From NCBI RefSeq assembly GCF_003334355.1, contig NZ_QOWP01000062.1: a stretch of DNA of 7,912 nt. One strand, given 5' to 3'. Positions 1,069 through 7,912 of this stretch are shown in pieces. The first letter of the stretch is position 1, and every line of letters starts with the position of its first letter. The translations under genes and the position numbers were made by a program. The notes under the pieces are model-generated. The model did not search any database. It saw nothing but the letters and a program-made list of their open reading frames with translations, and had not been told where the DNA came from. Source of the DNA: Escherichia coli (GTDB taxonomy: Bacteria; Pseudomonadota; Gammaproteobacteria; Enterobacterales; Enterobacteriaceae).

Positions 1069-1093
1069 AAAAAAGCCGCCTGGCTGGCGGCTT
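1069..1093 (-). terminator. Rho-independent terminator downstream of ydcH
   Basis: On the minus strand, GCCGCC-agcca-GGCGGC hairpin (plus 1075-1091) followed immediately by TTTTTT (complement of the A-run 1069-1074), about 10 nt after the ydcH stop. Confidence 0.6.
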
Positions 1094-1101
1094 AGGACAG
1101 T

Positions 1102-1326
1102 TTACACCTCTTTGACGCTCTCCTGCTGCAGGATTTTGAGCATCTCATCTTTTAACTGTAGCTTTTGTTTTTTCATGCGGACCACTTCCGCATTGTACCC
1201 TCGACCGTCGGAACCTTCCTTTCTGGCAATTTCATGATCAAGTTTATTGTGTTTATCGAACAAGGACATAAAGCGAGGATTTTCGTTTTTCAGACGGGAT
1301 ATTAAATCTCGGTATTCTGGAAACAT
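1102..1326 (-). CDS. ydcH: Small DUF465-family protein YdcH (74 aa)
   Basis: The track ORF starts at GTG 1330-1332. The ATG at 1324-1326 (MFPEYRDLISRLKNENPRF...) is preceded by GGAG with 5-nt spacing (cagGGAGtgcgtATG) and gives the 74-aa length I recall for YdcH. Stop TAA is at 1102-1104. Confidence 0.82.
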   Translation of the reverse strand: MFPEYRDLISRLKNENPRFMSLFDKHNKLDHEIARKEGSDGRGYNAEVVRMKKQKLQLKDEMLKILQQESVKEV

Positions 1327-1429
1327 ACGCACTCCCTGTTAGTGGCTGACAAGGTGTATCTGAAATACACACCATCAGATTACTCATTTAACTTAGGGAA
1401 AAATGCGAGCGGGATCGTGTTTAACCAGA

Positions 1430-1453
1430 CGGCACCTCCCGAAGAAGGTGCCG
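1430..1453 (-). other. Stable stem-loop immediately 3' of opgD, UUCG-type loop in the minus-strand RNA, no U-tract after it
   Basis: Plus-strand cGGCACCT(1430-1437)/AGGTGCCg(1446-1453) form an 8-bp stem. In the minus-strand transcript the loop is UCUUCGGG, which can close further into C(UUCG)G. It lies 13 nt after the opgD stop; a U-run precedes rather than follows the hairpin, so it is not a canonical intrinsic terminator. Confidence 0.35.
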
Positions 1454-1465
1454 AAGAAAAAACAA

Positions 1466-3121
1466 TTAACTCATCACGCGGTCGTCAACATACTGACGTT
1501 TATCCGGCGCTGGCGGGAAATACTGATACAGCCATGTTTCACTGATAGCGTCCCCCTGACAACGCAGATACATCCGCATATCGACCGGATCAGTGGAGTC
1601 CGACGTCGGATACCAGTCAAACTGAATACGATAACCATCAATGGGTTCAATATAGAGAATTTCGATTTGCTTCGCTTCCCCACTGGAAAGCGTAATCACC
1701 GGCTCAATGCCTTTTGGTGCGGCAGCTTTCAGATCACCACCAACGAAATCGACGGCAAAACGACGCGCCCATTTTTCGGGATAGTGTTCACCTGGCGCCC
1801 AACCTTCCGGGAAACCGCCCATGCCGGTACGCGTCGCCATAACGCGCGCTAATGGGCAATGAACAGGCGGTTGCGCACTCCAGTACAGACGATACTGGAA
1901 TGCAAACTCATCACCCGCTTTTACAGCTTTTTCTGGCTGCCAGAAGCAGACAATGTTATCCAGCGTTTCGCCCGTTGTTGGGATTTCCATCAGGCCGATG
2001 GTGCCCTTACCCCACTTGTTACGCGGTTCCACCCACAGACTTGGGCGTTTGTTATACCAGCCCATAATGTCCTGGTAATGGGAGAAGTCACGATCCAGTT
2101 GCAATAAACCAAACCCTTTCGGATTGTTGTCGGTGTAAGCATTGAACTGCAATTTTTGCGGATTATTCAGCGGACGGCAAATCCACTCGCCGTTGCCCCG
2201 CCACATGGACAGACGATCAGAGTCATGAATTTGCGGATGAATGGTGTCGCACATCCGACGTTCATTAGTACCGCAGCTGAACATACTGGTCATCGGCGCA
2301 ATGCCCAGCTGTTTAATGTCTTTGCGCGCATACAGGTGATTTTCCACATCCATAATCACCTGACTTTTCTCACAATGGATAGTGAACTTATAGGCACCAG
2401 TAATGCTGGCGCTATCGAGCAACGCATAAACGGTAAAGGTAGTTGCCCCCGGTTTTACCGTATCAAACCAGAAGGCGGTAAAGTCGGGGAACTCTTCTTT
2501 ACTGTCGGTGTAAGTGTCGATCGCCAGGCCGCGGGCCGACAAACCGTATTGATATGTATCATCAACGGCGCGGAAATAACTCGCGCCGAGAAATGATACT
2601 ACATCACGGCGCGCCAGTTCGGGGGCTTTAAACACGCGAAAACCGGCAAAGCCGAGATCGCTTTGCCCTTCTAATTGTTTGGTATCAACACCTGCATCGT
2701 TGTATTTGAACAACTCCGGGCGAAAGTGAATTTCACGCGCCAGATGTGTTGCTGGATCTACAGAAAACATACGAACGCGGCGACGGAATCCCATTCCCAT
2801 ATGGAAGAACTGAGCGTCCAGTTGACGGTTCTCAACGTTATGCCAGAGCGATTTTTCGGCGTCGTATTGAATACTGTTATAAGCCTGCGGCGTCATTGTC
2901 GCCAGCGTGTCAGGTAACGGACGAGGCGCACCACGCCACGCTGTTTGCGCTAAGTCGTGCGCCATTGACTGTAGAATGGAGAAGTCAAAACGCTGGGTTT
3001 GCCCGTCGGCAATATCAGAATCTGCCGCGAATGCCGCCTGAGAAAAAAGAGAAGCAATGCCGCTGGTACCGCACACGGCGGCCATAGCCATTGAACCTTT
3101 AATAAATCGTCTACGATCCAT
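1466..3121 (-). CDS. opgD: Glucans biosynthesis protein D (periplasmic, Tat-exported; osmoregulated periplasmic glucan backbone-length control)
   Basis: 551-aa ORF starting at ATG (rc of 3119-3121). N-terminus [35 protein letters not shown] has a twin-arginine motif (RRxFIK) and an AxA cleavage site. Length and sequence match my recollection of E. coli OpgD/MdoD. Confidence 0.93.
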
Positions 3122-5866: not shown

Positions 5867-7507
5867 TCACACCGTAGCGAAACTAACTGGTTCACCCGCT
5901 CCGCGAGGTTCTGCCGACACAGAATGTTTGTGCAGACGGAATACATCCACCGCCTCAGTTAATCGTGCCGCCTGTTCTTCAAGGGACACCGCCGCCGCTG
6001 AGGCCTCTTCTACCAGAGAAGCATTCTGTTGCGTCACCTTATCCATTTCAGAAATCGCCTGGCTAACCTGCGTTATGCCTCTACTTTGTTCATCCGAGGC
6101 GGCGGCGATTTCCTGCATGATATGTGTGACACTCGCGACGGCATCAACAATAGTGCTCATGGTTTTCCCGGCCGTTGCCACCTCATCCGACCCCAGGTCA
6201 ATTAACCTGACTGATTCACTGATCAAGCCTTCAATCTCTTTCGCCGCCTGAGCGCTGCGACTTGCGAGTGTCCGTACTTCGCTGGCGACAACGGCAAATC
6301 CACGCCCTTGCTCACCCGCTCGCGCGGCTTCAACGGCAGCATTCAGTGCCAGAATATTCGTCTGGAAAGCAATACTGTTGATGACGGCGGTGATCTCAGA
6401 AATTTTCTTCGAACTCGTGGAGATAGCGCCCATCGTTTTTACTACACCGGAAACCGTCTGCCCGCCATCGCTGGCTTTAATAGAAGCCTCTTGCGCCAGT
6501 TTGCTGGCATGATGCGCGTTATCCGCATTCTGTTTCACCGTCGCAGTGAGTTGCTCCATGCTGGCGGCAGTTTGTTCGATAGCCGCCGCTTATTCTTCGG
6601 TGCGAGATGACAGGTCCGCATTGCCAGCTGAAATTTCGCTGGTGCCACGATAAATCTCTTCCGCGCCCTGTCGAACAGTCCCTACTGTCATCCCCAGTGA
6701 ATGCTGCATTTGCTGTAAATGACGACTTAAGCGACCGATTTCATTACGACCCGCCGGTTCATCATTCATCGTCAGATCGCCACTGGCGATTTTTTCAATC
6801 CGTTGTGCGGCATGTTGCAGTGGACGAATGACGATCCGACGTAGCACCATAAATGTTATCAGCGTCATGACCAGGGCAAGCACAAACGCGCCAATCATGA
6901 ACATCCCACCCAGGCGGGTGCGCTGATGGGCCAGTTCCGCCAGTTGGTTGGCTCTGGTGCTACGTATCTTAACGGCTTTGTTCAAAATATCGGTATAAGC
7001 ATTATCCAGCGGTCGGATCTGCTCACTTTCATGATTGATAATCGCTTCAAACATGCCATTTTTGGCATATTTCAACATAGGTTGCATACCCGTGATATAA
7101 GCCTGAAAGCGTTGATTTAATTCAGTGTCGAGGGCTTCATCAGCAGGTGTTTTCACCGGTCGATTCTGATAAGCACGATAACCTTGCTGCGACTGTTTAA
7201 TCTCCGATTCGGCTTGCGCAATATTTCGCTTCATTGCTTCCATTTCCGCAATACGACTCGCAGCCCCGGCCTGAATCATATTGATCCGGGCTGAACGCAA
7301 AAAATCTGAACTGTTCGCTAACCCGGTCCGAATCTCAATCTCCGCAGTAACATCACGCTGATCGCGATCGGCCTGCCAGAGGAAATAGCCAGCCAGAGCA
7401 GAACTTAATGCGAATAGAACTAAGATACCGCCAAGAATGCAGGCAAATAACGGAACCAGCCTGATGTGATGCAAAAAACCTAATCGATGTGAGGGAGTTG
7501 TATTCAT
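5867..7507 (-). pseudogene. trg: Methyl-accepting chemotaxis protein III (ribose/galactose chemoreceptor) with an in-frame premature TAA at codon 306
   Basis: Track ORFs 6590..7507 (305 aa, MNTTPSHRLGF...) and 5867..6559 (230 aa) are in the same frame. The first ends SSRTEE-TAA (plus 6590-6592); the 10 intervening codons read [10 protein letters not shown], then [15 protein letters not shown]... continues into the conserved signalling domain. 305 + 1 + 10 + 230 = 546 codons, the full length I recall for Trg. Confidence 0.8.
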
Positions 7508-7753: not shown

Positions 7754-7799
7754 GCCTGCGGGTGCCTGAGACTTTCTGTTTTCAGGCTAACCGGGAATC

Positions 7800-7853
7800 A
7801 GAAAGACGAAGGCCCCGACCGATATTTCTATCAACTGTACTGCACCCATTTTG
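7800..7853 (-). ncRNA. sokB: Putative Sok-type antisense RNA (sokB-like); ends approximate
   Basis: Transcript predicted from the strong minus-strand promoter at 7861-7889. It is antisense to the toxin mRNA leader just upstream of the putative mokB start. The complementary plus-strand leader (CAGAAAGACGAAGGCCCCG) resembles the R1 hok leader I recall. The 3' end is not defined by a clear terminator. Confidence 0.4.
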
Positions 7854-7860
7854 TTGGACG

Positions 7861-7889
7861 ATGAAATGGAATAGCCCCTAATATGTCAA
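7861..7889 (-). promoter_or_regulatory. Near-consensus sigma70 promoter on the minus strand (antisense/Sok promoter)
   Basis: Minus strand reads TTGACA (plus 7884-7889), a 17-nt spacer, then TTTCAT (plus 7861-7866). The -35 is a perfect consensus, the spacing is optimal and the -10 is 4/6. The -35 overlaps the plus-strand ATG at 7883. Confidence 0.5.
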
Positions 7890-7912
7890 AGCCAAAATAC
7901 CCTTTTGAAAAG
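7883..7912 (+). CDS. mokB: 5' end of putative mokB-like reading frame (hok/sok family modulator ORF), truncated by the window edge
   Basis: ATG at 7883 opens MSKPKYPFEK..., which runs off the window. It starts like R1 Mok (MSSPHQ..., from memory) and sits where the antisense promoter overlaps. No Shine-Dalgarno is visible. The Hok toxin ORF would lie beyond 7912. Confidence 0.3.
   Translation, partial: MSKPKYPFEK

Follow-up and report, generated by a model that had tools for sequence, protein, structure and literature searches.

How does transcription of opgD end in Escherichia coli, and does it end before the next gene? Just past the opgD stop codon the minus-strand RNA can fold into a hairpin with no run of U residues behind it, and ydcH begins on the same strand at the 140th nucleotide, after an intergenic gap of 139 nt. 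An earlier note on this DNA had placed the hairpin and ydcH at these distances, had taken the structure to be one that protects the 3′ end or assists Rho rather than a classical intrinsic terminator, and had proposed that opgD and ydcH may be separate transcription units. The window, i.e. the whole stretch of 7,912 nucleotides that was analysed, is the E. coli chromosome segment ydcK-rimL-ydcH-opgD-hglS-ydcI-trg. With the minus strand read as sense, the gene order is trg, (ydcI on the opposite strand), hglS (ydcJ), opgD, ydcH, rimL and the convergent ydcK. Features of the opgD-ydcH region are collected in Table 1. Towards the right end of the window, trg (5867-7507, minus strand) is present as two ORFs, 5867-6559 and 6590-7507, and in the closest genome it is a pseudogene with an internal stop. 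An Rfam match to the sok antitoxin RNA lies at the right edge itself (7760-7912, plus strand, 72 bits, E = 5e-15).

Table 1. Features of the opgD-ydcH region, in window coordinates and, where given, in those of MG1655.
Feature	Window	Strand	MG1655	Basis and remarks
opgD transcription start site (literature)	3199	-	1496778	Yan 2018, Supplementary Data 1 and 2; moved to the window by exact sequence match
opgD CDS, stop TAA 1468-1466	1466-3121	-	1496856-1498511	ORF list; RefSeq annotation of the near-identical genome PSS-12 and of MG1655
U-rich 12-nt spacer UUGUUUUUUCUU, opgD stop to stem	1454-1465	-		sequence, alignment
Hairpin 5′ arm CGGCACCUUC	1444-1453	-		fold; covariation with 3′ arm
Tetraloop UUCG, closing pair C1444-G1439	1440-1443	-		fold; sister-species comparison
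Hairpin 3′ arm GGAGGUGCCG	1430-1439	-		fold; covariation with 5′ arm
Hairpin tail UCUG, 4 nt; published 3′ end at G1426	1426-1429	-		Yan 2018, Supplementary Data 1; MG1655 sequence check
Conserved block ACACGAUCCCGCUCGCAUUUUUCCC, mildly C>G, just downstream of the hairpin	1396-1420	-		alignments, C/G counts
ydcH CDS	1102-1326	-	1498651-1498875	downstream of the opgD hairpin; in the published operon variants b1424-b1426 and b1424-b1426-b1427
Canonical intrinsic terminator of ydcH, AAGCCGCC-AGCCA-GGCGGCUU and U-run to 1069	1069-1093	-		sequence; fold -15.1 kcal/mol

Folding with ViennaRNA bore out the hairpin and enlarged it. The 8 bp noted earlier are extended by U1445.G1438 and C1444-G1439, so that minus-strand RNA 1453-1430 forms a 10-bp stem (one U.G) with a C(UUCG)G tetraloop. 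Past the stop codon the RNA reads UUGUUUUUUCUU-CGGCACCUUC-UUCG-GGAGGUGCCG-UCUGGUUAAACACG, and the stem begins at the 13th nucleotide. Its minimum free energy is -18.6 kcal/mol as against -10.3 ± 2.3 in 200 dinucleotide shuffles (z = -3.6), one of which was as good. The hairpin is retained in both the minimum free energy and the centroid structures when about 150-155 nt of upstream or downstream context is included, and no competing or alternative (anti-terminator) fold was found in either of these ~155-nt contexts. It is a stable, stand-alone stem-loop.

In several respects the structure resembles a canonical Rho-independent terminator. It is GC-rich, of typical energy, placed at a gene end and close to a 3′ end mapped in vivo (see below), and its 10 bp and 4-nt loop lie within the intrinsic-terminator range of about 5-14 bp with a short loop. 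It differs in what follows and precedes the stem. The 7-8-nt U-tract expected just 3′ of the stem is missing: the tail UCUGGUUAAACACG, which begins UCUGGUUA, has U at 4 of 8 positions with no run longer than 2, and C, G and G are among its first 8 nt. Upstream of the stem there is a U-run instead of an A-run. The 8-nt RNA:DNA hybrid of the tail comes to about -8.8 kcal/mol, far stronger than the mean of -5.1 in 17 orthologous hairpins with a U-tract; both values are approximate and use the nearest-neighbour parameters of Sugimoto 1995. A consensus promoter and terminator scan of 900-1800 on both strands gave no match. Together these results uphold the view that there is no U-run and that the hairpin is not a classical intrinsic terminator.

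A transcript end at this position is already in a published table. By SMRT-Cappable-seq, which yields full-length reads of 5′-triphosphate transcripts, an opgD-only (b1424) transcript was reported from TSS 1496778 to TTS 1498551 in both M9 and rich medium and was flagged "novelTTS" (Yan et al. 2018, PMC6131387). The stem occupies 1498524-1498547 in MG1655, and TTS 1498551 corresponds to the G of UCUG (window 1426), 4 nt past the stem. Ten reads end there in each of the two media; the 3′ end rests on only these 10 reads per condition, and the method cannot separate a termination site from a trimmed end. Other reads pass the TTS, and operon variants opgD-ydcH and opgD-ydcH-rimL start at the same TSS 1496778 (Yan 2018). 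Of the primary transcripts that start at the opgD promoter in E. coli K-12, some end reproducibly 4 nt past the stem and others continue into ydcH and rimL. The site is thereby one of the leaky "novel TTS" sites of that catalogue that generate operon variants; most sites of the catalogue carry a U-run past the stem, which this one lacks. At a typical TTS of the dataset, positions -10 to -7 are taken up by the GC-rich 3′ arm and Us come next (Yan 2018), whereas the 3′ arm of the opgD hairpin ends at -4. The 3′ end is thus unusually close to the stem for that dataset.

The same work would seem to indicate that read-through depends on the medium. As labelled, 14 passing and 2 near reads stand against the 10 at the site in M9, while in rich medium the figures are 1 passing and 20 near reads against 10 (Yan 2018). 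In several rows of Supplementary Data 1, columns 7 and 8 (passing reads; ends within 50 bp) clash with the median extension, and the rich-medium opgD row lists 1 passing read yet a median extension of 227.5 nt. Because of this inconsistency, medium-dependent read-through was not used as evidence, and figures of this kind from the table call for caution.

Term-seq data from three conditions (Adams et al. 2021) contain no curated 3′ end at 14985xx, which low opgD expression may explain. The only Term-seq 3′ end of that study in this region is at MG1655 1498877 (window 1100), 2 nt past the ydcH stop and upstream of the ydcH terminator. In the bicyclomycin data of Adams 2021, which are of low coverage, no Rho region was called between opgD and ydcH; the nearest on the plus strand of MG1655 is at 1499587, after rimL. 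A route by Rho termination followed by trimming is therefore without direct support, and the suggested Rho-assisting role was not borne out in this one dataset. A strong rut site downstream of the hairpin was also considered and rejected, since the bias is a mild C>G one, with C/G of 1.21 in the first 78 nt past the stem and 1.4-1.6 in early ydcH.

U-less stem-loops at mRNA 3′ ends are known. In E. coli, stable stem-loops that are energetically terminator-like but have no U-tract or upstream A-tract, and with mild downstream C>G, were found at precise steady-state 3′ ends; once transcription has terminated further downstream, they shield the ends from PNPase and RNase II (Dar & Sorek 2018, NAR 46:6797). 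The opgD stem-loop is like this class in being stable, terminator-sized and just past the stop codon, in its low downstream U content, the lack of an upstream A-tract and the mild downstream C>G, and in the precise RNA 3′ end right after the stem (present in Yan 2018, absent from the Adams 2021 tables). It is unlike the class in two ways: the published set was defined by Rho dependence, whereas no Rho region was seen at the opgD-ydcH junction in the one bicyclomycin dataset, and substantial read-through into the genes after opgD is documented.

A hypothesis of protective 3′ stem-loops lacking a U-tract was reportedly put forward by Peters et al. in 2012. As the anatomy of the hairpin and the mapped 3′ end fit the class just described, we favour the reading that the hairpin is probably a leaky stem-loop that defines and protects the 3′ end of opgD mRNA, terminator-like but U-poor. 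Release of RNA polymerase at the hairpin would be inefficient, if it occurs, because the U-tract is missing. Polymerases would mostly pass, and most 3′ ends would probably arise further downstream: termination could occur diffusely in early ydcH or the 139-nt untranslated gap, the ydcH terminator could act, or an endonuclease could cut the RNA. Such ends could then be trimmed 3′ to 5′ by PNPase or RNase II as far as +4, where the stem would halt the exonucleases, and a stable monocistronic opgD mRNA would be left. The same leakiness may feed read-through transcription to ydcH-rimL. The earlier description of the hairpin is confirmed, and its interpretation is partly supported: the mapped end at window 1426 in both media agrees with a 3′-end structure.

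The hairpin was also compared between genomes. Within the species it occurs as a single copy, in 5,418 of 5,426 complete E. coli genomes. The window differs from most E. coli only in the spacer, with U at 1464 (TAATTG) where most carry C (TAATCG); this is a minority allele, and only 331 of the 5,418 genomes reach 99% identity over the 86-nt query 1405-1490. The sole stem variant seen in E. coli, that of strain SCU-204, has U.G in place of a C-G pair. In E. coli AF40 an IS200/IS605-family element of ~705 bp (1569-2273 of that locus) replaces window 1422-1075, so that ydcH is missing together with its leader and its terminator stem; the left junction of the element falls 7-8 nt past the intact opgD hairpin.

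The comparison was extended to opgD loci of Enterobacteriaceae, of which 80 were fetched, one per species, and 78 analysed together with the window (n = 79). A compact hairpin of -14 kcal/mol or below is present in 65 of the 79, starting 1-17 nt (median 9) past the stop. The remaining loci mostly have bulged or REP-like palindromes in the same position, the latter in Enterobacter and Kluyvera; only two have nothing there, and in both rimL begins 26 nt past the opgD stop. From one genus to the next the hairpin sequences are mostly unrelated; what is preserved is therefore a structure at this place.

Hairpins of Escherichia and Citrobacter (19 sequences) could be aligned. In this alignment 98.7% of the cells pair, as against 36-50% once the 3′ partner has been shifted by 1-3 columns. 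Two-sided changes are found in 14 cells, a number reached by none of 500 shuffles. One stem pair, A-U in E. coli, is replaced by G-C in E. albertii and by U-A in Citrobacter, and the base of the stem is either C-G or U-A. Where one side alone has changed, the result is a G.U wobble, a pair that forms only in the opgD-sense RNA. Through such wobbles the opgD-sense strand is the more stable one at 52 of the 65 loci and the antisense strand at 3 (Wilcoxon p = 7e-10); in E. coli the values are -18.6 and -14.6 kcal/mol. The compensatory changes and the bias of stability towards the sense strand, both read from sequence comparison, show the hairpin to be under selection as an RNA structure of the opgD transcript. 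The loop behaves differently. The C(UUCG)G loop of E. coli, familiar from extra-stable cUUCGg tetraloop hairpins, gives way to UCAU(G), UCAC(G) and UACU in sister Escherichia species and to other loops in Citrobacter; as the loop is replaced while the stem stays, the identity of the UUCG tetraloop is incidental and not under selection.

The tails of the 65 compact hairpins vary. A U-tract is present in 17, among them those of Klebsiella, Buttiauxella and several other genera; in 21 it is weak, and the other 27 lack it. The U-less forms are those of Escherichia, most Citrobacter, Salmonella, Lelliottia and others. Transition states between intrinsic and U-less ends have been discussed (Dar & Sorek 2018). 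The genes downstream vary as well: in most genera rimL lies 50-100 nt past opgD, with ydcH in between only in Escherichia, Citrobacter and Intestinirhabdus.

The canonical terminators at 17 of 65 orthologous sites imply that the site was ancestrally a terminator position, and they lend weight to a second explanation: that the E. coli hairpin is a weak but genuine intrinsic terminator, factor-independent or NusA-assisted, at which the stable stem and the partial U content of UCUGGUU release a fraction of the polymerases near the mapped 3′ end while the others read through. The d'Aubenton-Carafa discriminant is slightly positive (+7.8, approximate, with ViennaRNA energies), so that weak direct termination may occur. 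A sharp 3′ end (a single site with 10 reads per medium) alongside read-through is what many leaky terminators give, and no Rho-dependent region was called at the junction. Against it stand the stable hybrid that comes with C, G and G in place of a U-run, the blank terminator scan, a 3′ end nearer to the stem than is typical of its dataset, and the observation that U-poor stem-loops mostly mark trimmed ends (Dar & Sorek 2018). On this balance we regard direct termination as a possible but rather doubtful account of the end; it is not exclusive of the protective barrier, and both may operate at the same hairpin.

A bolder proposal is that the hairpin works as a tunable valve, where read-through to ydcH-rimL differs strongly between minimal and rich medium and the site has switched repeatedly between U-tract and U-less forms across Enterobacteriaceae. 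It draws on the read counts set aside above, and we consider it unlikely. If true, the locus would be a natural test case for a change of terminator mechanism and for the setting of the coupling of opgD to rimL and ydcH. We give still less credence to a regulated terminator or attenuator in the opgD 3′ UTR that tunes ydcH-rimL to growth conditions. Taken at face value, the M9 and rich-medium counts of Yan 2018 speak for it, but they are small and come from a table that is not self-consistent, so that the contrast may be an artefact. In the two ~155-nt contexts no anti-terminator fold rivals the hairpin, nor was there the mutually exclusive fold using a terminator arm by which a riboswitch or attenuator is recognised. 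An Rfam search matched no family over the hairpin, either at the gathering threshold or with the cut-off relaxed to E <= 10. A 3′-UTR-derived sRNA of the Hfq type, which has an intrinsic terminator and a 3′ U-tail, does not fit either, as the hairpin has no U-tail.

A chance palindrome, a DNA-level element (protein site, cruciform or REP-like repeat) or an element of the opposite strand is very improbable and largely refuted: the palindrome does fold on the plus strand too, and REP-like palindromes occupy the place in Enterobacter and Kluyvera, but the hairpin is far stronger than its shuffles, compensatory changes maintain the pairing, the G.U pairs favour the opgD-sense RNA, and on the plus strand an A-run comes next and no gene ends there. 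A REP repeat in particular was ruled out, since each of the 5,418 genomes has the sequence at one place, and the window gives a single match when up to 3 mismatches are allowed; with a single copy per genome the opgD hairpin is not a repeat family.

We return to the leaky 3′-end stem-loop and to what it implies for ydcH. The own clear terminator that ydcH had been credited with was found as a hairpin with a U-run at 1093-1069; it was seen by eye and by folding, was not flagged by the rule of the scan, and is where weak sub-threshold Rfam matches of the terminator type end. The separateness of the two genes was sustained in part. An opgD-only transcript does exist; on the other hand opgD-ydcH and opgD-ydcH-rimL transcripts were recorded and no ydcH-only start site was reported (Yan 2018), so that under those conditions ydcH is reached by read-through. 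For rimL a start site was listed at MG1655 1498884 (window 1093), 9 nt past the stop codon of ydcH and 2 nt ahead of the stem of the ydcH terminator, and rimL transcripts would therefore begin with that hairpin.

The DNA between the hairpin and ydcH has constraints of its own. The region upstream of ydcH (1327-1421, minus strand) contains blocks that are conserved in sequence in Escherichia and Citrobacter, with no covariation: ACACGATCCCGCTCGCATTTTTCCC (1420-1396), GTAAKCTG, the inverted repeat GTGTAT-N5-ATACAC (1370-1354) and CCACTAACAGGGAG before the ATG. They look like DNA-level control, as by a promoter or operator. The block at 1396-1420, which is strongly conserved, travels with ydcH and not with the hairpin; it is probably a ydcH promoter/operator or leader element and no part of the hairpin. 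A more extensive RNA fold linking the hairpin with the leader of ydcH, including a helix that would sequester the Shine-Dalgarno sequence and was suggested by a single-sequence fold, was rejected, as a 21-sequence alignment revealed conserved sequence but no covariation (term +0.19). ydcH has been reported to be induced by H2O2 and its product to be a stationary-phase protein; with the conserved blocks, these reports make a conditional promoter of its own a plausible candidate. The scan of 900-1800 gave no sigma-70 match for such a promoter, Yan 2018 lists no ydcH start site, and inspection of the conserved blocks by eye for sigma-32, sigma-E, sigma-54, sigma-S, CRP, LexA and OxyR motifs revealed no convincing match. 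A literature search returned no paper dealing with both opgD and ydcH.

The opgD hairpin is an ordinary case of a known kind of gene-end signal and implies no new mechanism. For annotation, it defines the end of the opgD 3′ UTR at window 1426. Since ydcH and rimL receive read-through from the opgD promoter, insertions and deletions in opgD are expected to have polar effects on both genes. For the Enterobacteriaceae, the series of U-tract, weak and U-less tails at one orthologous site is a small and clean illustration of the proposed drift of terminators between the intrinsic and the U-less state.
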